The notes under the pieces: model-generated
What the model was told of the DNA's origin: nothing
Databases searched by the model: none
Seen by the model: the letters and a program-made list of their open reading frames with translations, nothing else
Shown: piece after piece, positions 20,770 to 52,837 of the stretch
Position numbering within the stretch: position 1 is the first letter of the stretch
How the letters are laid out: each line of letters starts with the position of its first letter
Made by a program: the position numbers and the translations under genes
Sequence record: NC_055708.1
DNA length: 64,000 nucleotides
DNA from: Enterobacteria phage ATK47
Reading direction: 5' to 3' (one strand)

Positions 20770-21243
20770 ATGTTATTATCAGGCGCAAAATATAAAGAAG
20801 AAAAACAAAAATTTTATGATGCACAGAACGGTAAGTGTCCTATTTGCCACCGTGAATTAGACCCTGATGTTCAAGGTAACCATCTTGACCATGACCACGA
20901 ATTAAAAGGGCCAAAAGCCGGTAGAGTTCGTGGTTTACTATGTAACCTGTGCAATGCAGCAGAAGGTCAAATGAAGCATAAGTTCAACCGTTCCGGTTTG
21001 AAAGGTCAAAACGTTGACTACTTAGAATGGCTTGAAGCTCTTCTTGCTTATTTGAAACAAGATTATTCTGATAATAATATCCATCCTAATTTTGTTCCGG
21101 ATAAAACTAAAGAGTTCTCAAGACTAGGTAAAGAGGAAATGATGACCGAGATGCTTCAAAGAGGATTTGAATATAATGAATCTGATACTAAAACACAATT
21201 AATAGCTTCATTCAAAAAGCAGCTTAGAAAGAGTTTAAAATGA
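20770..21243 (+). CDS. 49: Endonuclease VII (Holliday junction resolvase)
   Basis: Near-identical to T4 gp49 as recalled (CPICHRELDPDVQGNHLDHDHEL...). Confidence 0.95.
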   Translation: MLLSGAKYKEEKQKFYDAQNGKCPICHRELDPDVQGNHLDHDHELKGPKAGRVRGLLCNLCNAAEGQMKHKFNRSGLKGQNVDYLEWLEALLAYLKQDYSDNNIHPNFVPDKTKEFSRLGKEEMMTEMLQRGFEYNESDTKTQLIASFKKQLRKSLK

Positions 21244-23057
21244 AAATTGAAAAAGAAATTGAAGGATTAATTTATAAAACTAATAAAGATCTTTTGAACG
21301 AGAATGCTAATAAAGATTCTCGTGTTTTTCCAACTCAACGGGACCTTATGGCTGGTATTGTGTCTAAGCACATTGCCAAAAATATGGTCCCGTCTTTTAT
21401 TATGAATGCGCATGAAAGCGGAATCATTCATATGCATGATATTGATTATTCTCCTGCTCTTCCATTTACTAATTGCTGTTTAGTCGATTTAAAGGGGATG
21501 CTTGAGAATGGATTTAAATTAGGCAATGCTCAAATTGAAACGCCTAAATCGATTGGTGTTGCTACTGCAATTATGGCACAAATTACTGCACAAGTTGCTT
21601 CCCATCAATACGGCGGAACGACTTTTGCTAATGTAGATAAAGTACTTTCTCCTTATGTTAAACGCACCTATGCAAAACATATTGAGGATGCAGAAAAATG
21701 GCAAATCGCTGATGCGTTGAATTATGCTCAATCCAAAACAGAAAAAGATGTCTATGACGCATTCCAAGCTTATGAATATGAAGTAAATACTCTCTTTAGT
21801 TCAAACGGACAAACGCCTTTTGTAACAATTACATTTGGTACTGGAACTGATTGGACCGAACGAATGATTCAGAAGGCAATTCTTAAAAACCGCATTAAAG
21901 GTCTTGGTCGTGATGGAATAACTCCTATTTTCCCTAAACTTGTTATGTTTGTCGAAGAGGGTGTTAATCTTTATAAAGACGATCCGAACTATGATATTAA
22001 GCAACTCGCTCTAGAGTGTGCAAGCAAAAGAATGTATCCTGACATTATTTCTGTTAAGAATAATAAAGCTATTACCGGTTCTTCAGTTCCAGTTTCTCCA
22101 ATGGGTTGCCGTAGTTTCTTGAGCGTATGGAAAGATTCGACCGGTAATGAAATTCTTGATGGACGTAATAATCTCGGTGTTGTAACACTGAATCTTCCTC
22201 GTATCGCATTAGATTCTTATATTGGAACACAGTTCAATGAACAGAAATTTGTTGAATTATTCAACGAACGAATGGATCTGTGCTTTGAAGCTTTGATGTG
22301 TAGAATTAGTTCCTTAAAAGGAGTTAAAGCGACTGTTGCTCCTATTCTTTACCAAGAAGGTGCATTCGGGGTTCGTCTTAAACCTGACGACGATATAATT
22401 GAGTTATTTAAAAACGGTAGAAGTTCAGTGTCTTTAGGATACATTGGTATTCATGAATTGAATATTCTTGTTGGCCGTGATATTGGACAAGAAATTTTAA
22501 CTAAGATGAATGCTCATCTTAAACAGTGGACTGAAAGAACTGGATTTGCTTTTAGCTTGTATTCTACACCTGCTGAAAACCTTTGTTATCGTTTCTGTAA
22601 ACTCGACACAGAAAAATACGGAAGTGTAAAGGATGTCACTGATAAAGGCTGGTACACTAATAGTTTCCATGTTTCAGTAGAAGAAAATATTACTCCGTTT
22701 GAAAAGATTTCTCGTGAAGCGCCATATCATTTCATTGCGACAGGTGGTCACATTTCTTATGTTGAACTTCCAGATATGAAAAACAATTTAAAGGGACTTG
22801 AGGCTGTCTGGGATTATGCTGCACAACATTTAGATTATTTTGGTGTTAATATGCCAGTAGATAAGTGTTTTACATGCGGAAGCACCCATGAAATGACTCC
22901 TACTGAAAACGGATTTGTTTGTTCAGTTTGCGGAGAAACTGATCCTAAAAAGATGAACACTATAAGAAGGACCTGCGGTTATTTGGGAAATCCGAACGAG
23001 CGCGGATTTAATCTAGGCAAAAATAAAGAAATCATGCATAGGGTTAAACACCAATGA
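21240..23057 (+). CDS. nrdD: Anaerobic ribonucleoside-triphosphate reductase NrdD
   Basis: 605 aa; C-terminal glycyl radical motif RRTCGYLG; uninterrupted (no intron). Confidence 0.95.
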   Translation: MKIEKEIEGLIYKTNKDLLNENANKDSRVFPTQRDLMAGIVSKHIAKNMVPSFIMNAHESGIIHMHDIDYSPALPFTNCCLVDLKGMLENGFKLGNAQIETPKSIGVATAIMAQITAQVASHQYGGTTFANVDKVLSPYVKRTYAKHIEDAEKWQIADALNYAQSKTEKDVYDAFQAYEYEVNTLFSSNGQTPFVTITFGTGTDWTERMIQKAILKNRIKGLGRDGITPIFPKLVMFVEEGVNLYKDDPNYDIKQLALECASKRMYPDIISVKNNKAITGSSVPVSPMGCRSFLSVWKDSTGNEILDGRNNLGVVTLNLPRIALDSYIGTQFNEQKFVELFNERMDLCFEALMCRISSLKGVKATVAPILYQEGAFGVRLKPDDDIIELFKNGRSSVSLGYIGIHELNILVGRDIGQEILTKMNAHLKQWTERTGFAFSLYSTPAENLCYRFCKLDTEKYGSVKDVTDKGWYTNSFHVSVEENITPFEKISREAPYHFIATGGHISYVELPDMKNNLKGLEAVWDYAAQHLDYFGVNMPVDKCFTCGSTHEMTPTENGFVCSVCGETDPKKMNTIRRTCGYLGNPNERGFNLGKNKEIMHRVKHQ

Positions 23058-23524
23058 ATTATGATAGATTTTATCCTTGCGATTTTGTGAATGGCCCTGG
23101 TTGTAGGGTCGTTCTTTTCGTTACAGGGTGTTTGCATAAATGCGAAGGGTGTTATAATAAATCAACATGGAATGCTAGAAATGGTGTTCCATTCACTGGT
23201 GAAACACTAGAACAATTAATTGAATGTTTGAATAATGATTATATAGAAGGATTAACTATAACCGGAGGTGACCCTCTCTATCCTGATAACCGAGATGTTA
23301 TTCATTGCATTGTTCAAACAGTAAAAAATCTTTATCCTAATAAAAGCATTTGGTTGTGGACAGGATATACGTTTGAAGATATTAAACAACTAGAAATGCT
23401 TAAATATGTTGATGTTATTATTGATGGGAAGTATGAGAAAAATCTTCCGACCAAAAAACTGTGGCGAGGATCAGATAATCAGCGACTTTGGTCAAATACC
23501 GATGGGGTGTGGAAACATGATTAA
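23054..23524 (+). CDS. nrdG: Anaerobic RNR activating enzyme NrdG (radical SAM)
   Basis: CxxxCxxC-type cluster (CLHKCEGCYN); follows nrdD. Confidence 0.95.
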   Translation: MNYDRFYPCDFVNGPGCRVVLFVTGCLHKCEGCYNKSTWNARNGVPFTGETLEQLIECLNNDYIEGLTITGGDPLYPDNRDVIHCIVQTVKNLYPNKSIWLWTGYTFEDIKQLEMLKYVDVIIDGKYEKNLPTKKLWRGSDNQRLWSNTDGVWKHD

Positions 23525-37893: not shown

Positions 37894-38529
37894 ATGAAAA
37901 CTACACCAATCACTATCGCTATTGACGCAATCGTAAAACAAGCTTCTTCTTTGGCTACTATGGCCAAAGTAATTAGTCAAAACCCTGCTCGTTATAATGC
38001 TATTCTAGAAACTCTTCGACGCCCAGGACTTAGTAATTATGAAAGCCGAGTAATTATTACAGGTGTTGGTAAGAATGCTAATATTGCAACTAAAGCTTCT
38101 GAGACATTTGCTTCACTCGGTATCCCAAGTATGTACTTGAACACCGGGCATTATTCTCACGGTGATGCAGGATTCATTGCGCCTAATGATGTGTTGATTC
38201 ATATTAGTCGTTCTGGTAAGACTGAAGAAATGATAGGTGTTGCTAAACATCTTCGTATGATTCGTCCTCAGGTTAAACAGATTCTGTTACATTGTAACCC
38301 TGACATTCCACAAGAATACGAAGCTCTTTTTGATTATACGTTCTGTACCGGTATCGCGGTAGAAGTTGACGAGAACTCTTTAGCTCCGACAATGTCCACT
38401 ACATTGTTGTTAGCGCTTATCGATACGTTCGCTATCAACCTTTCGTCTGAACGCGGATTTACCTCTAATGACTTCCTTAAGTTCCACCCTGGTGGTGCAC
38501 TAGGTGCCATGTTACGAGGCGAGCAATGA
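37894..38529 (+). CDS. SIS-domain sugar-phosphate isomerase (KdsD/GutQ-like arabinose-5-phosphate isomerase candidate)
   Basis: VIITGVGKNANIATKASETF...HISRSGKTEE SIS-type phosphosugar-binding motifs. Confidence 0.65.
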   Translation: MKTTPITIAIDAIVKQASSLATMAKVISQNPARYNAILETLRRPGLSNYESRVIITGVGKNANIATKASETFASLGIPSMYLNTGHYSHGDAGFIAPNDVLIHISRSGKTEEMIGVAKHLRMIRPQVKQILLHCNPDIPQEYEALFDYTFCTGIAVEVDENSLAPTMSTTLLLALIDTFAINLSSERGFTSNDFLKFHPGGALGAMLRGEQ

Positions 38530-38669
38530 AAGCAATAACAATAGGACTTTTACTATTGATGCTTGTCATGACTATCTACTGGAGCTTAACGGCTCCAGTA
38601 ATGATTCCGACTCTTATAATCGGATGGATTATGATTGGACTACAAGCAAAGTATGAATGCTTTAACTAG
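38526..38669 (+). CDS. Small hydrophobic protein, 47 aa
   Basis: ATGA overlap; single transmembrane-like segment; not in ORF track. Confidence 0.3.
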   Translation: MKAITIGLLLLMLVMTIYWSLTAPVMIPTLIIGWIMIGLQAKYECFN

Positions 38670-38710
38670 AATAGTGTACAATACACCTACTTACCAATGA
38701 GGACCACAAC

Positions 38711-40396
38711 ATGAAAAAAGCTGTTATTCTTGGTGCTGGACTGGCAACTCGTTTGTATCCAATAACGCATCATATTCCTAAGGTGCTTGTTAACTATAAA
38801 CAAGACACTATTCTGAGCAATTTGTATACAATTTATTCTGACCTTGGCGCAGATGAAATTATTGTAGTAGTTCATTCAAAATTTGCTGAAACTGTTCGAG
38901 CTTATTGCGAGCAAGAAGGGTTCAATGCGACTATTCGTACAGTTGATGAAGCGTATGGTTCTGCTTATGCTCTTGCTAAATTATACAAAGATTTAGATGG
39001 CCATAATGTAATTGTTAACTGGTGTGATATTATTCCTGATTTTGGTTCATGGTCTTGGAATGTTAACGCAATCTATGTTAAGGGTGATGAATGTCGATAT
39101 AATTTCGATGGTGAAAATATCACTAACGTAGGTTCAACAGGCGGTAATGTTGTAGGAATTTATCAGTTCAAAGACTGGGAATTCTACATGGGTTCTACTG
39201 ATGAGGAAATTCACGAATACTGCAAAGGACGTGATTTCGTAGAATTCCTTTACGGCAGTGCATTCAATAAATCAGAGCTTATGAATCTAATTGATTTAGG
39301 TGATATGCCTAAACTTGAAAAAGCTCATGAAGTTCGTGAACTTAATCGTAGTTTTAATGCAGTTGAAATTGGCGAAGAAACTGTAACTAAATTCGCGTTA
39401 ACCGAACAAGGTCGAGCTCTTCAGAAAGATGAGATTTCATGGTATTTGAAAGTGAAATCAGATTCAGTCCCTCAGTTAGTTTCTGTTAATGAAAATAACT
39501 TTGAAATGGAACGTATTAAAGGTAAGCCGGCATTTGAATATATTAAATCCAAATCAAGTCTTGCTCGTCCACAAATTGTTGATGCAATTTTAGATGCACT
39601 GAAATTCAGCACAGACACTTATTTTGTAAGTCCTGAAACTGTTCGCCGTGATTTCACTAAAGAGTTCTATACGAAAGTTATTGATCGTTGTGAAAGCATT
39701 CAGCCATTGATTGATTCATTTGGTAAAATCACACACGTGAACTACACTAAGATTGGACGTCTGAAGCCAATGTTGAAACAAGCTTTAGAACATCTTATTC
39801 GTTATCATAACCGTTCTCAGGGACAGTACTCTGTTATTCACGGTGATCCGAACTTCAGTAATACTATGATTACTGATAACGGCGAAGTCAAGTTTATCGA
39901 CCCTCGTGGATATTTTGGTGAAACCAAGATTTACGGACCAAAATTGTATGATGAAGCTAAAGTGCTTTATGCTGTTTCAGGTTATGATGAATTCAACGCT
40001 AATCCGACCTGGGGCCAGTTTATTATTGATGAAACAACTTGTAATGTGACTATTAACATCAATCCATTAGTTTACAAATATGGAAAGATGAGTTCGTTTA
40101 ACGAGTATCATCATTTGGCAGTAGCAATTATCTGGATTGCATTAGGTGGTTATTTCAAGAATAATCCACTTAAAGCGGTAGCCGCATATTATAAAGGTAT
40201 GGAACTTCTGACTAAGCAATTACGTAACATGGGCCGTGTACTTCAAGATGGCTCTATTAGTTATGACGTAGCAGAACCTGTAACGGCTACTCTGATTACA
40301 AAAAATCCTGGTAAATGGGTACTAACTGATAAAGAAACTGGTGTTTCCTATCGTCCAATCGGTGGCGATATCACTCATCAATGGGAACGAATCTAA
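38711..40396 (+). CDS. Bifunctional sugar-1-phosphate nucleotidyltransferase / APH-fold sugar kinase
   Basis: N-terminal ILGAGLATRLYPIT (RmlA/GlmU-type motif); C-terminal HGDPNFSNTMI...IDPRG (Brenner-type kinase motif). Confidence 0.65.
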   Translation: MKKAVILGAGLATRLYPITHHIPKVLVNYKQDTILSNLYTIYSDLGADEIIVVVHSKFAETVRAYCEQEGFNATIRTVDEAYGSAYALAKLYKDLDGHNVIVNWCDIIPDFGSWSWNVNAIYVKGDECRYNFDGENITNVGSTGGNVVGIYQFKDWEFYMGSTDEEIHEYCKGRDFVEFLYGSAFNKSELMNLIDLGDMPKLEKAHEVRELNRSFNAVEIGEETVTKFALTEQGRALQKDEISWYLKVKSDSVPQLVSVNENNFEMERIKGKPAFEYIKSKSSLARPQIVDAILDALKFSTDTYFVSPETVRRDFTKEFYTKVIDRCESIQPLIDSFGKITHVNYTKIGRLKPMLKQALEHLIRYHNRSQGQYSVIHGDPNFSNTMITDNGEVKFIDPRGYFGETKIYGPKLYDEAKVLYAVSGYDEFNANPTWGQFIIDETTCNVTININPLVYKYGKMSSFNEYHHLAVAIIWIALGGYFKNNPLKAVAAYYKGMELLTKQLRNMGRVLQDGSISYDVAEPVTATLITKNPGKWVLTDKETGVSYRPIGGDITHQWERI

Positions 40397-40782
40397 TGCA
40401 CCGTGTAGAAAACATGCTTAATCTTTGTTTTGATGTCGATGATTGTATAACAGAGTGGAATAACAATCGTGATTATGTGAACTTCAAACCAGACGTCGAA
40501 ATGGTGACCGCCATTAATGCCCTGTATGATGCAGGGCATACCATAACGCTTTACACTGCTCGTGGTATGAAGTCGGTAGGTCCTGGTCGTATAGCAATTG
40601 ACATTCTCCCAAGTCTGATTCAGAACTTGGAAAACATTGGTTTGAAGTACCATAATTTGCTAACACATAAACCAGTATATGATTGGATTATCGACGACAA
40701 AGCTATGCGTCCTGACGAATTCAAAGCTCTTATGAATAAAGGCGAATTCGAAACATTTAAATCGTATAAACCGAATCTATAA
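40396..40782 (+). CDS. HAD-like phosphatase candidate
   Basis: N-terminal FDVDDCIT (DxD motif); TAATG overlap with upstream gene. Confidence 0.45.
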   Translation: MHRVENMLNLCFDVDDCITEWNNNRDYVNFKPDVEMVTAINALYDAGHTITLYTARGMKSVGPGRIAIDILPSLIQNLENIGLKYHNLLTHKPVYDWIIDDKAMRPDEFKALMNKGEFETFKSYKPNL

Positions 40783-40833
40783 TAATTTAAGTAAGACCTG
40801 CAAAAAAAAACCCATCGCATCAATTAACGCGAG

Positions 40834-42003
40834 ATGCAAAAAATGAATACTTTTAAAATCGGAACGAATTTTGATTTAGCTCTTCTTGATAAAATCGTAG
40901 AGCTCAATAAAACTTATCCTAATAGCTTGATAAATGAAGTATACGGCTCTACAAGAGAAATGGCTTTTGTAGCAGCCAGACCTGATTTTAGGCTTCCTGA
41001 CGTTGACAAAAAGATGTTAGAAGACTACGTTAAACGTTGTAACGAATTAGGTATTTGCTTTAACTATACACTCAACACGATAAATCCTGGTTCAAAAAGA
41101 GAACTAGTTGAGTGGAAGAAGAAAGCTATTCAGGATTATGTTCAGTATCTTTGGTCAATAGGCGTATGGCGTATTACTATCGCTAACCCTGTTGTTATGG
41201 AAATTGTTCGTGAAGTCAATAAAGACATTGAGATTGAAGTTTCAACAATTCTACATGTTGATGCTGTAACTCAAATCAAATACTTGCACGACCAATATAA
41301 CATCAAAAAAGTCTGTTGCGGAATTCATAAGAACCGTTCAGTTTCTTTCCTGAAGCGTGCAGCAGAGTTTTGCAATAAGAACAATATAATATTTGAAGTT
41401 CTTGTAAATGAGTTCTGTTCTAATGCTGGTAAAGGGTATACAACACATTGTAGCTATCGTGACTCTTGCTATATTTTCCATAGTACTGATGTTACCGCTG
41501 ATGATGCTAAATCCTTAAATGGATATCCTATGCAGCACTGTATTAAAGCTCGTGATACAGACCCATTTAACTGGCTGAGAACTCGTTTTGTTCGTCCTCA
41601 AGATTTGAAACTTTATAATGATATTGGTATCACTCAATTCAAAGTTTCAGGACGTACAGGTAGCACAGACTACATTTTGAAAGTTCTTGAAGCATACGCT
41701 TCTGAAAAGTTTGAAGGTAATTTGTTAGAACTGTGGAAGCCTTTAGAGACTATTTTCACTCTTGAAAATGAGACTGAGTTTTCACATACAGTAAATATTG
41801 AAACCTCATTGTTAGACGGTTTTTTAGAAAAAAGGTGGTTCAGACATCCAGATTTCGATTGTGCTAATGAAATCTGCGGGACGACGTGTACATATTGTGA
41901 AAGATATTATAAACGTCAGTTATCTAAAAATGGGTTATCAGAAAACTCTATATCTATTATTGATATAACTAACTCTGATGACGCTTTGAGGTACCCGGAA
42001 TGA
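40834..42003 (+). CDS. U32-family (collagenase-like) protein, possible Fe-S enzyme
   Basis: Block similarity to U32 proteins (ANPVVMEIVREV..IEIEVS; FEVLVNEFCSNAGKGYTTHCSY); Cys cluster. Confidence 0.45.
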   Translation: MQKMNTFKIGTNFDLALLDKIVELNKTYPNSLINEVYGSTREMAFVAARPDFRLPDVDKKMLEDYVKRCNELGICFNYTLNTINPGSKRELVEWKKKAIQDYVQYLWSIGVWRITIANPVVMEIVREVNKDIEIEVSTILHVDAVTQIKYLHDQYNIKKVCCGIHKNRSVSFLKRAAEFCNKNNIIFEVLVNEFCSNAGKGYTTHCSYRDSCYIFHSTDVTADDAKSLNGYPMQHCIKARDTDPFNWLRTRFVRPQDLKLYNDIGITQFKVSGRTGSTDYILKVLEAYASEKFEGNLLELWKPLETIFTLENETEFSHTVNIETSLLDGFLEKRWFRHPDFDCANEICGTTCTYCERYYKRQLSKNGLSENSISIIDITNSDDALRYPE

Positions 42004-42239
42004 TTTCTAGAAAAACTTTTAACCACCAACTTAATGAAGAGATTTTGACTATAAAACTGAACACTAACGAACAAATTCTTAAAAAGGCCCTTATGGGCCT
42101 GTTTGAAACCAAAGCGGCTAAAGTGATTAAAGAACCTGTTCAATTGGAATACTACACTGATGCATTCCTTCATAGTGTTCTTGGAAGTATAGATTCTGAA
42201 GCTTTACGTTATATCAACATTGCCAAGAAATTCAAATAA
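42000..42239 (+). CDS. Hypothetical protein
   Basis: ATGA overlap. Confidence 0.35.
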   Translation: MISRKTFNHQLNEEILTIKLNTNEQILKKALMGLFETKAAKVIKEPVQLEYYTDAFLHSVLGSIDSEALRYINIAKKFK

Positions 42240-42281
42240 GCTTTACGAATTGAGTATATAATAAATTGTATTGAGGTAAAC

Positions 42282-42998
42282 ATGGGAAAACATAACACAA
42301 TGAAATATATCAAAGCCGCAGATTTTCAAGCCGCATTTAAAGCAGTCAATCGTGAAATTTTAGAAAATCCTGAATTCGTAACTGATTCTCGTATTGGACG
42401 TTGTAATGAAATCGGGTCCATGACAGTAGTTGTTGACAATCCATCATCATTCAAAATGACCGACCCACGTATTAACCGCATCTCTTATGAATATGCCGAA
42501 GACTTCTGGAAGTTTATGATTTCTGGTGGTACTGATGCAGAAGAAGCGTTTAAGGCATATCCTAATGTCGCTAAATTTATTTCTAAACCTAAATCAGACG
42601 CTTTGCCGGCGAACTTCAACACTTTCTATGGTCCTCGCATTGCGGCCCAATTACCAGCTCTTCTAAAAGAACTTAAAGAGAAACCTAACTCTCGAAGAGT
42701 TGTGTTCCAAATTCTAGAAAGTTCTGATCAGGCTTTGCTTGATTCGGACGAAACACTTGAATATCCATGTACTGACTCAGTGACTTATTATATTCGCGAT
42801 GGTAAGCTTTATACCCACTGTCATATGCGTTCTCAGAACTGTGCTGTTGTTATGCAGTTGGATTTTTATCTCCAAGGAAAATTACTTCATTATATCGCTA
42901 ACGAATGCGGCGTAGAAGTTGGTGATTATACTCATACCATGGTAAGTGCCCATGTGTTTGAACGTGATTTTGATTATGTTAAAGGATTCCTTGACTAA
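42282..42998 (+). CDS. 42: Thymidylate-synthase-fold pyrimidine hydroxymethylase (gp42-like dCMP hydroxymethylase, divergent)
   Basis: YPCTDSVTYYIRDGKLYTHCHMRSQNCAVVMQLDF resembles the catalytic Cys region of the TS/dCMP-hydroxymethylase family; position between 43 and uvsX. Confidence 0.6.
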   Translation: MGKHNTMKYIKAADFQAAFKAVNREILENPEFVTDSRIGRCNEIGSMTVVVDNPSSFKMTDPRINRISYEYAEDFWKFMISGGTDAEEAFKAYPNVAKFISKPKSDALPANFNTFYGPRIAAQLPALLKELKEKPNSRRVVFQILESSDQALLDSDETLEYPCTDSVTYYIRDGKLYTHCHMRSQNCAVVMQLDFYLQGKLLHYIANECGVEVGDYTHTMVSAHVFERDFDYVKGFLD

Positions 42999-43897
42999 TG
43001 GCTATTTTCCGCGTACCAATCTTGAGTATGCGGTCTTATGAAACTGGACAGTATGCTATCCTTAAGGATGGCAACTTCCAACTTCATTTGCACCGTGCTA
43101 ATCCAGGTGATGTGATTACATATCCACGTAATGCATCTGATATTAAAGAATGTGAACGTCTTTTCCCGGAATTTAAGTTTGTTCCATTATGGTATAAAGA
43201 TAACGCGTATAACACTCGTAAATATTTCTGGTCTGAAAATGAATTTGTGGTTGATTCATTAATTGCTTATTATGATTGTGATTTTCTAATAACAGATATC
43301 ACTGGATATGACGGCGCTTTTGATGTAGAATTCAATTTCAATATCACTGCAGACCCTAATAAACCACGTTTTTATATTGATGAATTCTTAAAAACCGATA
43401 TGTTGTCGGTTAATCGTTCACTTCAAACTACTGTGTTGAATGAACGTCAAAAAGAAGTGCTGGTTAACGCCGGTGCAGATGGTAATAAGATTATCGTAAC
43501 GCAGAAAGTTATACGTCCTTCCATCATGCAGCGTCTTGTAGGTGATTTGGCTCCTATTCATGTAGATGGTATTTTTCATCCATTTCGAATTAGTGATCCG
43601 TGTTATCATTTTGAACAAGTGGTTGAATGTGCAATTCAATTAGGTCAACCGCTTTATATAACTGATCCAAATAATAGCTTTGACAGAAATAAGTATCCTG
43701 AAGAAGCGCTGATTCGAATTTTTAAACCAACTAAAACTGAGTACTATCAAATTCTTAAAGGACGTCCGAAGATTCAATATTTCGAAAATCCTGAAGAAGT
43801 ATTCCATCCAGGTCTTGGTGAGTTCATCTACTTTAATGCTTTAATTTCTTCGCCGTATAATATACCTAAATACGAAGATGTCGTAATCGAGGAATAA
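42998..43897 (+). CDS. Hypothetical protein, 299 aa (occupies the T4 beta-gt position)
   Basis: ATGA overlap with the gp42-like gene; no recognisable motif. Confidence 0.4.
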   Translation: MAIFRVPILSMRSYETGQYAILKDGNFQLHLHRANPGDVITYPRNASDIKECERLFPEFKFVPLWYKDNAYNTRKYFWSENEFVVDSLIAYYDCDFLITDITGYDGAFDVEFNFNITADPNKPRFYIDEFLKTDMLSVNRSLQTTVLNERQKEVLVNAGADGNKIIVTQKVIRPSIMQRLVGDLAPIHVDGIFHPFRISDPCYHFEQVVECAIQLGQPLYITDPNNSFDRNKYPEEALIRIFKPTKTEYYQILKGRPKIQYFENPEEVFHPGLGEFIYFNALISSPYNIPKYEDVVIEE

Positions 43898-43898
43898 A

Positions 43899-44447
43899 AT
43901 GGCTAAAATTATTTTAGTAGATGGCCCAGATAATGCTGGTAAAACAACTTTCATTAATGACATAATGGAAATTAGTGAAAGATATGTAAAGATTGATTTC
44001 CCTAAACGAACAGTTGATGGACGTTTCGATGTTAAGTCTCGAAATGAAGTTGGCTGTTTCGAAACGATGTTGAATTATTTAGACCCTACTAAGATTTATC
44101 TGTTAGACCGTGGATATATTAGTAACTGGGTTTATGGACGTATTCGACAAGATGCGGACTCGGTTCTTGACGTTTATGAACAGGACTATGTTCGTCTTTG
44201 CCAAAACCATGATGTGTTCACAATTATTTTAACACGTAACGAAATGACTGAAAGTTTTGAAGACGACCTTATTACTTTGTCTTCATTCGGTTTTAATACA
44301 GTCATTTCACATTTTGAAGAGTTTGCAATTCATAACAAAATCCAAACGTATCAATTACTTAATCATGATGGTGCTAACAAAGTTATAGGATTTAATGCAA
44401 GCGAACGTAATTATTTGATTACAGAAATTATCAAATGGGCTCGTTAA
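43899..44447 (+). CDS. P-loop nucleotide/nucleoside kinase-like protein
   Basis: Walker A GPDNAGKTT; DRGY motif. Confidence 0.5.
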   Translation: MAKIILVDGPDNAGKTTFINDIMEISERYVKIDFPKRTVDGRFDVKSRNEVGCFETMLNYLDPTKIYLLDRGYISNWVYGRIRQDADSVLDVYEQDYVRLCQNHDVFTIILTRNEMTESFEDDLITLSSFGFNTVISHFEEFAIHNKIQTYQLLNHDGANKVIGFNASERNYLITEIIKWAR

Positions 44448-44545: not shown

Positions 44546-45718
44546 ATGTCTGATTTAAAATCTCGTCTGATTAAAGCTTCTACTTCTAAAATGACTGCCG
44601 ACTTGACCAAGTCTAAGCTCTTTAATAATCGTGATGAAGTCCCTACTCGTATTCCGATGTTGAATATTGCACTAGGTGGTGCTCTGAATGCAGGATTGCA
44701 ATCAGGCTTGACTATTTTTGCTGCACCTTCTAAACACTTTAAAACATTGTTTGGGCTGACTATGGTTGCAGCGTATATGAAGAAATATAAAGATGCAATC
44801 TGTTTGTTTTATGACTCGGAATTTGGTGCTTCAGAATCTTATTTTCGTTCAATGGGTGTTGATTTAGACCGTGTAGTTCACACACCAATTCAGTCCGTCG
44901 AACAACTTAAAGTTGATATGACTAATCAGCTTGACGCTATTGAACGCGGTGATAAAGTTATTATCTTTATCGATTCAATCGGTAATACTGCATCTAAGAA
45001 AGAAACCGAAGATGCATTGAACGAGAAAGTTGTAGGTGATATGTCTCGTGCTAAGGCACTTAAATCTCTGTTCCGTATTGTGACTCCTTATCTGACTATT
45101 AAAGATATTCCGTGTGTTGCAATCAACCATACAGCAATGGAAATCGGCGGACTATATCCTAAAGAGATTATGGGCGGTGGTACAGGTATTCTTTACTCTG
45201 CTAACACTGTATTCTTTATCTCTAAACGTCAGGTTAAAGAAGGTACAGAATTGACAGGTTATGACTTCACGTTGAAAGCAGAAAAATCTCGTACTGTTAA
45301 AGAAAAATCTACTTTCCCGATCACGGTTAATTTTGATGGCGGTATTGATCCATTCAGTGGCTTGTTAGAAATGGCAACTGAAATTGGATTTGTTGTTAAG
45401 CCTAAAGCTGGTTGGTATGCTCGTGAATTCCTTGACGAAGAAACAGGCGAAATGATTCGTGAAGAAAAATCATGGCGTGCTAAAGCTACTGATTGTGTAG
45501 AATTCTGGGGGCCGTTGTTTAAACACAAACCTTTCCGAGATGCAATTGAAACTAAATATAAACTAGGTGCTATCTCTTCTATTAAAGAAGTTGATGACGC
45601 TGTTAACGACCTTATTAATTGCAAAGCAACAACTAAAGTTCCGGTTAAAGCTTCTGATGCTCCGTCTGCAGCAGATATAGAAAACGACCTTGACGAAATG
45701 GAAGATTTCGATGAATAA
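44546..45718 (+). CDS. uvsX: Recombinase UvsX (RecA-like)
   Basis: 390 aa; near-identical to T4 UvsX as recalled. Confidence 0.97.
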   Translation: MSDLKSRLIKASTSKMTADLTKSKLFNNRDEVPTRIPMLNIALGGALNAGLQSGLTIFAAPSKHFKTLFGLTMVAAYMKKYKDAICLFYDSEFGASESYFRSMGVDLDRVVHTPIQSVEQLKVDMTNQLDAIERGDKVIIFIDSIGNTASKKETEDALNEKVVGDMSRAKALKSLFRIVTPYLTIKDIPCVAINHTAMEIGGLYPKEIMGGGTGILYSANTVFFISKRQVKEGTELTGYDFTLKAEKSRTVKEKSTFPITVNFDGGIDPFSGLLEMATEIGFVVKPKAGWYAREFLDEETGEMIREEKSWRAKATDCVEFWGPLFKHKPFRDAIETKYKLGAISSIKEVDDAVNDLINCKATTKVPVKASDAPSAADIENDLDEMEDFDE

Positions 45719-48597: not shown

Positions 48598-48966
48598 ATG
48601 AAAAAATTAATCGCTTTAGCAATGGTATTTGGATTAACCGGATGTGGTGCCCATGGCTTTATCCCTAATAACGTCGGCCAATTGATTTACAATCCGAATG
48701 TTAAACAGTACGACCAACCTAAAGTTGAAGTGGAAGACCCGGTTACTGTAGGTAATCGAATGATTCAAGCTGATGCCCATGCTCAACGTTATCGTGATTC
48801 TGATACTGTAGCATTGTCAAAAGAACAACGCGTTAAAGAACATTGCTTACAGGCTACTGAAATCGCATTCATTCGCTATGTTGAAACAACTGGTAAAGAG
48901 CCTTCCCAGAAACAAATCGCGAATAACTACGTCCAGTGTATTGAACGTTTAAACAAATTTAATTAA
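48598..48966 (+). CDS. Lipoprotein
   Basis: Lipobox LTGC after signal peptide. Confidence 0.5.
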   Translation: MKKLIALAMVFGLTGCGAHGFIPNNVGQLIYNPNVKQYDQPKVEVEDPVTVGNRMIQADAHAQRYRDSDTVALSKEQRVKEHCLQATEIAFIRYVETTGKEPSQKQIANNYVQCIERLNKFN

Positions 48967-49027: not shown

Positions 49028-49276
49028 ATGGAATTATTCGTAGCTAGTTCAGTAGCAGTTTTAATCGCAGGTATTGGTTCAATCATCATTTACATGTTGC
49101 CTTGGGTAATCGCACTTATTCGTGGCACAAAAAGCACAACAGCAATCTTCTTTGTATCTTTGCTCTTTAACTGGACGATGGTTGGTTGGATTGGAACTTT
49201 AATTTGGTCTATCGTTGCCGAAAAGAAATCTGCTCAGCAGCCTCAACAAGTAATTATTATTCGCGAAAAAGAATAA
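49028..49276 (+). CDS. Small two-helix membrane protein
   Basis: Two transmembrane segments. Confidence 0.45.
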   Translation: MELFVASSVAVLIAGIGSIIIYMLPWVIALIRGTKSTTAIFFVSLLFNWTMVGWIGTLIWSIVAEKKSAQQPQQVIIIREKE

Positions 49277-52315: not shown

Positions 52316-52837
52316 ATGGCACACTTTAATGAATGTTCACAACTTATTTCTGGTGTTGATAAAGCAGAAGAAGCTTATTTTAATGCTCTGATTCACGAAG
52401 ATAAAGACCCACTGCAGGTAATGCTTGATATGCAGAAATCTTTACAGGTTCGTCTGGCAAATGACAAGCCTGAACATAACAAACATCCTGATGAATTGGC
52501 CACTGCTGGTGATGTTGTTGATTGGCTGCGTAATCAGAAAGATTATATTGATGATGAATTCCGTGAACTGTTGACTTCACTTGGTGGTATGAGCAATGGT
52601 GAAAAAGCCGCCAGCAGTGTATGGAAGCCATGGAAAGCACAACATGCTGAATATCGAAATCGTCGTATCGATGAACTGTCTCCTGAAGACCAGCTTGAAA
52701 TTAAATTTGAAATGATTGATATTCTGCATTTCGTTCTAAATATGTTCCAAGGTCTAGGTCTTTCGGCTGAAGAAATCTTTAAACTTTACTACTTGAAAAA
52801 CCAACACAACTTTGAACGTCAGGATAATGGTTACTAA
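52316..52837 (+). CDS. 56: dCTPase-dUTPase gp56 (MazG-like)
   Basis: MAHFNEC...DPLQVMLDMQ...ETAGDVV.WLR matches T4 gp56 as recalled. Confidence 0.95.
   Translation: MAHFNECSQLISGVDKAEEAYFNALIHEDKDPLQVMLDMQKSLQVRLANDKPEHNKHPDELATAGDVVDWLRNQKDYIDDEFRELLTSLGGMSNGEKAASSVWKPWKAQHAEYRNRRIDELSPEDQLEIKFEMIDILHFVLNMFQGLGLSAEEIFKLYYLKNQHNFERQDNGY

Follow-up and report, generated by a model that had tools for sequence, protein, structure and literature searches.

The RB69-type cluster for arabinosylated 5-hydroxycytosine in an Enterobacteria phage, and a possible anaerobic role for its U32-family protein

Two described systems are the nearest counterparts of the locus analysed here, namely the glucosylation of 5-hydroxymethylcytosine (hmC) in T4, which involves gp42, alpha-gt, beta-gt, gp56 and gp1, and the arabinosylation cluster of RB69, HY126 and Bas46-47 (RB69 gp45-gp55; 'Afh' in HY126). 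Thomas 2018 (PMC6024577) reported arabinose in RB69 DNA, named the modification ara-hmC, put forward ORF055c and the fused ORF53_52c as genes for UDP-arabinose, and drew attention to the eight-gene module. Nuclear magnetic resonance and mass spectrometry on DNA from RB69 place the arabinose in ether linkage straight on 5-hydroxycytosine (5hoC), with no methylene carbon, and the base bears one or two arabinofuranoses, the nucleosides being plain arabinofuranosyl-5-hydroxydeoxycytidine (Araf-5hodC; Lee 2026, PMC13326640). Mono- and di-arabinosyl-deoxycytidine of the same chemistry is present in the Mosigvirus NP, and the hmC assignment is there termed erroneous (PMC13390438). Here we analyse a 64,000-nucleotide stretch of Enterobacteria phage ATK47 (NC_055708.1; this whole stretch is called the window), in which the interval 37894-44447, between gene 43 and uvsX, is very probably the Mosigvirus (RB69-type) cluster for arabinosylated 5hoC in virion DNA. 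The cassette is real but already known, since Thomas 2018, He 2026, Lee 2026 and PMC13390438 publish its chemistry and genes. A further proposal concerning its U32-family protein is specific, testable and apparently unpublished.

The interval is 100% identical to that of Enterobacteria phage ATK48 (KT184310.1; genus Mosigvirus, RB69 group), whose record coordinates exceed those of the window by 34524, and about 150 other Mosigvirus genomes match it at 97-98% nucleotide identity. One of these Mosigvirus records, AlbertHofmann/Bas47, labels the genes 'involved in UDP-arabinose biosynthesis'. The seven open reading frames (ORFs) of the initial annotation were recovered between gene 43 and uvsX (start at 44546) with unchanged coordinates, all on the plus strand, and two small plus-strand ORFs absent from its list, 38526-38669 (47 aa) and 42000-42239 (79 aa), lie among them. 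The same genes occur in the same order from gene 43 to uvsX in the RB69/HY126 cluster, and there is no substantive difference; ATK48 is another strain, in which the nucleotidyltransferase-kinase and transferase ORFs are intact. In the RB69 reference, sequencing errors break up these two genes (PMC6024577, PMC13326640). Neither the fusion (38711-40396) nor the transferase (42998-43897) has a CDS in KT184310.1, although both ORFs are intact.

The 238-aa thymidylate synthase (TS)-fold protein (42282-42998; RB69 gp48 equivalent) had been read as a gp42-like hydroxymethylase. It matches Pfam Thymidylat_synt (2e-15), the Cys of its EYPC motif aligning with ThyA C146, and is 98% identical to PDB 9iqc/9ir2/9iqu (4 differences in 238 residues; E 2e-161), whereas its identity to T4 gp42 is about 25% (tblastn E 2e-10); no dCMP hydroxymethylase entry is found among the 60 PDB sequence matches listed. 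Aligned with E. coli ThyA, the protein keeps C146 and carries L143E, N177D and D169N. The L143(D/E) and N177D substitutions are common to it and T4 gp42, N177D corresponding to a preference for dCMP, but D169 is kept in gp42. An RSxN motif is present in 9/9 relatives examined. D169N is a published diagnostic that predicts 5-hydroxy-dCMP activity in nine further homologues (PMC13326640), and it is shared with the RB69/HY126 enzymes; both the TS homologue and the HAD phosphatase described below are near-identical to solved HY126-series structures. RB69 gp48 binds flavin mononucleotide and makes 5-hydroxy-dCMP with oxygen from 18O2 (Lee 2026, PMC13326640), and the flavin cofactor and O2-derived hydroxyl hold for both gp48 and the HY126 enzyme (PMC13326640). 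Judged by its sequence, the 42282-42998 product is a flavin- and O2-dependent 5-hydroxy-dCMP synthase and not a dCMP hydroxymethylase.

The sugar branch begins with a 211-aa putative D-arabinose-5-phosphate isomerase (37894-38529; RB69 gp55 equivalent), which would convert ribulose-5-phosphate to arabinose-5-phosphate (Ara-5-P). It matches Pfam SIS (4e-10), the NCBIfam models KpsF/GutQ (5e-32) and KdsD (2e-30), PDB 3etn (7e-25), 5uqi (2e-22) and 2xhz (the KdsD SIS domain, 1e-18), and the PHROG 'arabinose 5-phosphate isomerase' (1.5e-116). While the SIS catalytic domain is shared with the KdsD/GutQ/KpsF isomerases, the alignment stops short of the full profile (positions 2-153 of 268) and scores 111 bits, below the cut-off of 204. 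As the protein is 211 aa long and matches only these positions, the tandem CBS domains are absent; lacking the SIS-plus-CBS-pair architecture of KdsD/GutQ, it is a SIS-only relative that resembles the single-domain isomerases 3etn and 5uqi, and not a KdsD equivalog. The 561-aa fusion that follows (38711-40396; RB69 gp52:53 / HY126 AfhE equivalent) is predicted to be bifunctional. Its N-terminus matches Pfam NTP_transferase (4e-9, residues 3-99), NCBIfam sugar-1-phosphate nucleotidyltransferase models down to 8e-13 and PDB 1jyk (4e-5), and holds the nucleotidyltransferase signature G-x-G-x-R-L...P-K in the form GAGLATRL...PK (GAGLATRLYPITHHIPK; LGAGLATRLYPITHHIPK). The C-terminal half, putatively an APH/choline-kinase-like kinase, contains HGDPNFSN...IDPRG, which is the Brenner motif H-x-D-x4-N followed by the metal-binding Asp, and has weak Pfam matches to Fructosamin_kin (0.004) and EcKL (0.007) over residues ~308-409, both below their cut-offs. 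Structural matches for the kinase half of the AfhE-type enzyme are reported in PMC13326640.

The third sugar enzyme is a HAD-family phosphatase (RB69 gp51 / HY126 AfhF equivalent), predicted to convert Ara-1,5-bisphosphate to Ara-1-P, whose ORF spans 40396-40782 or, from an alternative ATG, 40381-40782 (133 aa). A Pfam search of the protein gave no match; it has an FDVDD motif (N-terminal DxD nucleophile), matches PDB 9iqw (1e-86) and 1xpj (2e-10), and matches the NCBIfam capsule-biosynthesis phosphatase model TIGR01689 at 2e-13, below the curated cut-off. According to the summary of He 2026 in PMC13326640, AfhE of HY126 converts Ara-5-P to the 1,5-bisphosphate and later makes UDP-arabinofuranose, and AfhF, the HAD enzyme, removes the 5-phosphate. 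The order so summarized for HY126, in which the kinase acts at C1 first, the HAD enzyme next and the nucleotidyltransferase last, displaces the earlier scheme of phosphatase before anomeric kinase. The broader claim of a non-glucose hypermodification cassette that builds a nucleoside diphosphate (NDP)-pentose donor from ribulose-5-phosphate is supported, and domain searches back the initial assignments (SIS isomerase, nucleotidyltransferase with a putative kinase half, HAD phosphatase, U32, TS fold and P-loop kinase).

Downstream of the TS homologue, the 299-aa protein that had been left as an unknown (42998-43897; RB69 gp46:47 equivalent) has a confident structure model with a GT-B fold of two Rossmann-like domains, and would itself be the first, base-proximal arabinosyltransferase; HY126 has the same 299-aa-type transferase at 98.7% protein identity. 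The second transferase, the homologue of RB69 ORF003c, is encoded between gene 39 and rIIA at 99011-100111 of the ATK48 record, ~490 bp past the end of the window. The last gene of the interval (43899-44447, 182 aa; RB69 gp45 equivalent) encodes a thymidylate-kinase-like (Tmk-like) P-loop kinase with a GPDNAGKT motif, a match to the PHROG 'thymidylate kinase' (2e-45) and a match confined to the P-loop with the NCBIfam dTMP kinase model (0.007); a PDB sequence search with it returned noise only. Unrelated phage contigs likewise have a Tmk-like kinase together with U32, and the enzyme presumably has a role in the pathway. A dCTP pyrophosphatase (gp56 homologue) is annotated in ATK48 at record 86840-87361, and its plus-strand ORF is present at 52316-52837 of the window.

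These genes suggest a complete route. The SIS isomerase would divert ribulose-5-phosphate to Ara-5-P, the kinase domain of the 561-aa fusion would phosphorylate it at C1, the HAD phosphatase would strip the 5-phosphate, and the nucleotidyltransferase domain would yield UDP-arabinofuranose. In parallel, the TS-fold enzyme would hydroxylate dCMP at C5 with flavin and O2, and a phage deoxynucleoside monophosphate kinase (gene outside the window) together with host kinases would carry the product to 5-hydroxy-dCTP. Because the pyrophosphatase would remove dCTP, only the modified nucleotide would be incorporated by gp43. The 299-aa GT-B enzyme would then put the first arabinose on the 5-hydroxyl and the second transferase would add another. 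The hydroxylase, the UDP-arabinose steps and the DNA chemistry have been shown by others in close relatives.

Four points weigh against this assignment of the interval. The experimental support comes from relatives of ATK48; the kinase domain is assigned from motifs and weak hidden Markov model (HMM) matches; four of the nine ORFs (the 47-aa ORF, U32, the 79-aa ORF and the Tmk-like kinase) lie outside the demonstrated steps; and single transferases are inactive on 5hoC-DNA (PMC13326640), so that the first arabosyl transfer may take place on DNA or on a nucleotide. Of the alternatives, an arabosyl-hmC pathway with a gp42-type dCMP hydroxymethylase is the one put forward in the 2018 model and in the initial annotation, which had cited reports that RB69-group phages carry arabinosylated hmC. 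The arabinose part of that statement stands, whereas the base in RB69 and in another Mosigvirus is 5hoC (PMC13326640, PMC13390438). The name ara-hmC (PMC6024577), the many GenBank records that say 'dCMP hydroxymethylase' and the two substitutions common with T4 gp42 fit a hydroxymethylase, but the ether link without a methylene carbon, the 18O from O2 in the 5hodC made by gp48 (PMC13326640), the rejection of hmC in PMC13390438, and the combination of D169N with ~25% identity to gp42 and 98% to the crystallised HY126-type enzyme leave it already essentially refuted and very improbable. It is even harder to credit that the cassette, as an auxiliary metabolic module, serves the making of a sugar of the host surface, either 3-deoxy-D-manno-octulosonate (Kdo) or capsule. 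Its best named HMM matches are indeed capsule or lipopolysaccharide enzymes (KpsF/GutQ, EcbF-BcbF) and PDB 9iqw is titled 'Capsule biosynthesis protein', but the cassette has neither a Kdo-8-P synthase nor a CMP-Kdo synthetase, virion DNA of RB69 and further Mosigviruses bears arabinose (PMC6024577, PMC13326640, PMC13390438), and the cluster is always linked with the TS-fold hydroxylase and the GT-B transferase.

The arabinosyl-5hoC cluster shares both genomic position and logic with the T4 system: in each, a TS-fold enzyme alters dCMP before replication, a dCTPase excludes deoxycytidine, and GT-B transferases decorate the hydroxyl by means of an NDP-sugar. It differs in that the acceptor is a hydroxyl here and a hydroxymethyl in T4, the chemistry involves flavin and O2 here and folate in T4 (PMC13326640), and the sugar is arabinofuranose instead of glucose, so that the phage must build its own donor. 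The TS homologue is set apart from gp42 by its low identity and by D169N, and no similarity in sequence could be detected between the transferase and alpha-gt or beta-gt. That no T4-type glucosyltransferase is present was borne out, as tblastn with T4 alpha-gt and beta-gt over the whole window gave only noise (best E 2.5 and 4.8) and the interval between genes 55 and 47 holds only small a-gt.x-type ORFs. The T4 gene order used for comparison (43, imm.1, imm, 42, beta-gt, segA, uvsX) was also correct, but imm had been described as replaced by the cassette, and a homologue lies elsewhere, at 49028-49273 (64% identity, E 4e-31), with an imm.1 homologue at 48604-48951 (tblastn E 3e-15). The two genes are relocated, not lost. 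They now stand downstream of gene 41 and dmd, beside spackle, whereas T4 has them between 43 and 42; Dhakavirus MX01 retains imm adjoining gene 43. Erwinia phage Virsaitis27 has a gene for a Seg-like homing endonuclease lodged between those for the HAD phosphatase and U32 (locus L005, 4352-4990), and since this insertion echoes T4 segA beside beta-gt, the interval appears to be a hotspot of mobile endonucleases.

The 389-aa U32-family protein (40834-42003; RB69 gp50 equivalent) is encoded between the sugar and base genes. Characterized members of the family, namely RlhA (ho5C2501 of 23S rRNA), TrhP (ho5U34 of tRNA) and UbiU/V (anaerobic ubiquinone synthesis), are O2-independent and prephenate-dependent, and prephenate is the demonstrated oxygen donor for UbiU/V (PMC6599085, PMC10990095). 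The phage pathway needs a pyrimidine hydroxylated at C5, and this is the chemistry that depends on RlhA and TrhP (PMC6599085, PMC10990095). The phage protein has the Peptidase_U32 domain and fold (Pfam 7e-11) and ten Cys that are invariant across 42 homologues down to 46% identity. In an hhalign comparison with RlhA (Prob 78%, E 1.8e-5), C206 and C212 (CSYRDSCYIFH), both among the invariant residues, fall on RlhA C169 and C176 (CVAYSGQCYISH), and a MAFFT alignment shifts them by one register. The corresponding motif cysteines are essential in both TrhP (C170, C177) and RlhA (C169, C176). The counterpart of TrhP E162 / RlhA E161 depends on the alignment and is either E193 (invariant) or E188 (at least 90% conserved). 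The resemblance to RlhA, TrhP, UbiU and UbiV thus comprises the domain and fold, counterparts of the two essential Cys, many conserved Cys and, among relatives of the phage protein, a genomic link to prephenate supply.

The differences from these proteins are considerable. Identity between the phage U32 and the four E. coli paralogues is only 17-19%. The protein has an insertion of 5 residues and does not retain the canonical C-x6-C-x15-C-x3/4-C spacing of the 4Fe-4S site, having C-x5-C in place of C-x6-C and no x15 loop. It carries an additional C-terminal cluster, C343-x4-C348-x3-C352-x2-C355, which is also invariant in the 42 homologues. It matches neither the RlhA nor the TrhP model of NCBIfam, UbiU alone appearing below threshold (9e-4); an hhalign comparison with TrhP aligns the N-terminal half only, and a PDB sequence search gave no match. 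In keeping with a functional enzyme of this kind, across genera the U32 protein is the best conserved member of the cluster, at 79-88% identity, compared with 68-84% for the TS homologue, 48-68% for the transferase and 65-72% for the nucleotidyltransferase-kinase.

The neighbours of U32 in related phages associate it with prephenate supply. A chorismate mutase gene (CM_2, 33-45 bits against a cut-off of 27) is found after U32 in KLB31, CIP9, Virsaitis27, PM2, TG1 and Shewanella phage Thanatos-2, following it directly or after one small ORF in these six relatives examined; in Thanatos-2 the order of the cluster is rearranged and U32 and the mutase are still together. By tblastn the mutase occurs in 51 phage records from at least 12 host genera, none of them Mosigvirus, and among the matches listed it is at the TS/U32 locus in every record. 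The phage mutases keep R11, R28, K39, E52, S84 and Q88 of the E. coli PheA mutase domain, which we take to be the catalytic residues of the EcCM structure. No chorismate mutase was found anywhere in the window, and host PheA/TyrA would therefore have to supply prephenate. In a metagenomic contig (L025 1082-3791 / L026 60-2799), the gene order is dNK/Tmk-like kinase, a U32 protein 58% identical to that of the window, DAHP synthase (2.7e-42) and the N-terminus of a DHQ synthase (2e-10), the last two being the first two shikimate steps. The contig is short and phage-like, with in-frame TGA codons that suggest stop-codon recoding, and shikimate-pathway genes are unusual in phage.

The context of U32 is also one of deoxynucleotide metabolism. 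In large non-T4 phage contigs, U32 homologues with 50-58% identity always lie among deoxynucleotide genes, as in a 466-kb contig with Tmk, UDG, PolIII-alpha and dCMP deaminase followed by U32, and in another with NT5C and YfbR-like genes near U32. The contig L024 has the order dUTPase_2, Tmk-like kinase, a homologue of the 299-type transferase (tblastn 1e-7; starting IPIFSMRSYETG...), U32 and PolIII-alpha; the transferase stop overlaps the U32 start, indicating translational coupling, and no TS homologue was found within 9 kb. L024 (7232-10089) and L011 (246-9939) belong to phages with a PolIII-alpha replicase in which U32 stands beside a Tmk-like kinase, dUTPase_2 or dCMP deaminase; neither has a TS homologue in the DNA fetched, and the DNA modification served by their module may be another one based on a glycosylated hydroxy-pyrimidine. 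Three contigs of metagenomic myophages, by comparison, carry a Flavodoxin_2 gene (NAD(P)H-flavin reductase-like; L027 605-1123, L028 6539-7054, L029 6715-7275) along with a TS homologue and a 299-type transferase. In L028 and L029 this gene immediately precedes that for TS, L027 has it in the same cluster, and no U32 was found within the fetched ±8 kb of these loci. The product is plausibly a dedicated flavin reductase for the 5-hydroxy-dCMP synthase; the cassette in the window has no such gene. From the Flavodoxin_2 contigs on the one hand and the mutase and shikimate loci on the other, the TS route appears to travel with a flavin reductase and the U32 route with prephenate supply.

Within the phage collection, U32 occurs only in phages that also carry the 5hoC cluster. 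It is present in 220 phage records, all with at least 80% identity and 0 from Acinetobacter, whereas the 299-aa transferase is in 347, 57 of them from Acinetobacter. Acinetobacter phage DLP1 and Pseudomonas phage PspYZU05 have the isomerase, nucleotidyltransferase-kinase, HAD, TS, glycosyltransferase and kinase genes with no gene between HAD and TS, so that U32 is dispensable for the aerobic chemistry, and DLP3 makes tri-arabinosyl-5hoC without U32 (PMC13326640). As a soft control, tblastn found NrdD in 2912 phage records, with Acinetobacter outside the ten commonest names (cut-off 41 records), even though at least 57 Acinetobacter phages carry the transferase. The notion that all enteric 5hoC phages need U32 is ruled out by E. 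coli Dhakavirus MX01, which is without it.

We propose, tentatively and at not quite even confidence, that the phage U32 hydroxylates C5 of (deoxy)cytidylate or of DNA cytosine in a reaction that depends on prephenate and not on O2. The flavin/O2-dependent synthase encoded 280 bp downstream would have in it an anaerobic counterpart, making the same base in an anaerobic host. All cytosine is replaced, dCTP is removed and the demonstrated hydroxylase needs O2, yet the host is a facultative anaerobe of the gut and the phage is equipped for replication in the absence of O2 by an anaerobic ribonucleotide reductase with its activase, the nrdD/nrdG genes being intact on the plus strand at 21240-23524 (ATK48 annotation; ORFs 21240-23057 and 23054-23524). 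An O2-independent hydroxylase in the same pathway is the simplest reading of this. The Mosigvirus protein would use host prephenate, many relatives would boost the oxygen donor with their own chorismate mutase, and in contigs with U32, Tmk-like kinase and 299-type transferase but no TS within 9 kb, U32 may be the sole hydroxylase. Two routes to one essential base would parallel the E. coli pairs TrhO/TrhP (tRNA) and UbiIHF/UbiUV (ubiquinone), in each of which two unrelated enzymes perform one hydroxylation, one using O2 and the other being a U32 protein with prephenate (PMC6599085, PMC10990095). The O2-using member is a flavin enzyme both for UbiI/H/F and for the phage TS homologue; unlike those pairs, the phage pair is demonstrated for its O2-dependent member only, and the redundancy is proposed by analogy. 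Weighing against an anaerobic hydroxylase are MX01 and ~40 Escherichia records that have the transferase and no U32, and the kind of substrate, since neither a mononucleotide, a deoxynucleotide included, nor DNA has a precedent in the U32 family of RlhA, TrhP and their relatives.

Two other roles for U32 appear less probable. PMC13326640 lists RB69 gp50, the U32 homologue, in Table 1 only, as a 'sugar or heterocycle reductase', and its Discussion cites the RlhA and TrhP RNA-hydroxylation pathways without connecting them to the U32 gene. A reductase, or another tailoring enzyme with the arabinose donor or the modified base as its substrate, would suit the position of the gene between sugar and base genes and the Fe-S-type cysteines, which fit redox chemistry generally. 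We consider it unlikely, as RB69 nucleosides are plain Araf-5hodC with no feature that requires a reductase (PMC13326640), Acinetobacter, Pseudomonas and Dhakavirus phages retain the rest of the cluster without U32, DLP3 arriving at the same chemistry, and the adjoining chorismate mutase and shikimate genes are left unexplained. Less likely still is that U32, with the mutase of its relatives, acts on RNA in the manner of TrhP or RlhA (ho5U34 in tRNA, ho5C in rRNA) and that its place in the cluster is incidental. In PMC6599085, and in Kimura 2017 as cited there, the only pyrimidine-hydroxylating U32 proteins characterized act on RNA; T4-like phages encode their own tRNAs, and E. coli Dhakaviruses cope without U32. 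But the C-terminal domains found in TrhP (453 aa) and RlhA (653 aa) are missing from the phage protein, which is always embedded among deoxynucleotide or DNA-modification genes, is coupled to a 299-type transferase in L024, and is confined to 5hoC-cluster phages within the phage collection. Neither role accounts for the mutase and shikimate neighbours together with the deoxynucleotide context. No literature linking U32, prephenate or chorismate mutase to these phages was found in the sources covered, which do not include He 2026 and Mahler 2025.

The two small ORFs add further detail. The stop codon of U32 overlaps the start of the 79-aa ORF-X (42000-42239). In PM2 and TG1, small ORFs separating U32 from the mutase have 42-45% identity to ORF-X and share with it the motif Y-x-DAF-x-HS-x-x-G. 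ORF-X was considered as a diverged chorismate mutase of the AroQ (type II) kind and rejected, since it has no Pfam match up to E 10, none of the catalytic residues align, and its small-ORF family is a different one, present alongside the mutase in both PM2 and TG1. In the large database the family is Mosigvirus-only, several Mosigviruses having truncated versions of 47-58 aa, and ORF-X might be a U32 accessory factor or a decaying gene. The 47-aa ORF (38526-38669; MKAITIGLLLLMLVMTIYW...), between the isomerase and nucleotidyltransferase-kinase genes, has two hydrophobic segments predicted from its translation to lie in the membrane. Annotations of AlbertHofmann, KLB31 ('contains transmembrane domain'), Virsaitis27, PM2 and TG1 show an ORF of 46-48 aa at this position, with Kanagawa-, Winkler-, Mosuguk- and Tegunaviruses among the carriers, and the product looks like a conserved small membrane protein within a cytoplasmic sugar-nucleotide cluster. 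PADLOC models gave zero matches for U32, ORF-X, the P-loop kinase and the 47-aa ORF. A scan for promoters and terminators returned sites no more frequent than in shuffled sequence, and the composition profile of the cassette shows no foreign signature.

The cassette explains the resistance of RB69-like phages to many restriction enzymes and their inability to recombine with T4. For the cluster as a whole, the value of this analysis is mainly corrective, in that the base is 5hoC and not hmC, the transferase lies inside the interval and imm is relocated. If the proposed role of U32 is true, a U32 enzyme that modifies DNA and a phage that draws on prephenate as an oxygen donor would both be firsts, and the conflict between an O2-needing hydroxylase and anaerobic growth in the gut would be settled. 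The U32 family, for which in vitro hydroxylation by any member is still lacking in the field, would gain a simple mononucleotide substrate for such an assay (PMC10990095). Phage DNA modification would then differ according to oxygen, which would bear on phage therapy and on bacterial defence systems.

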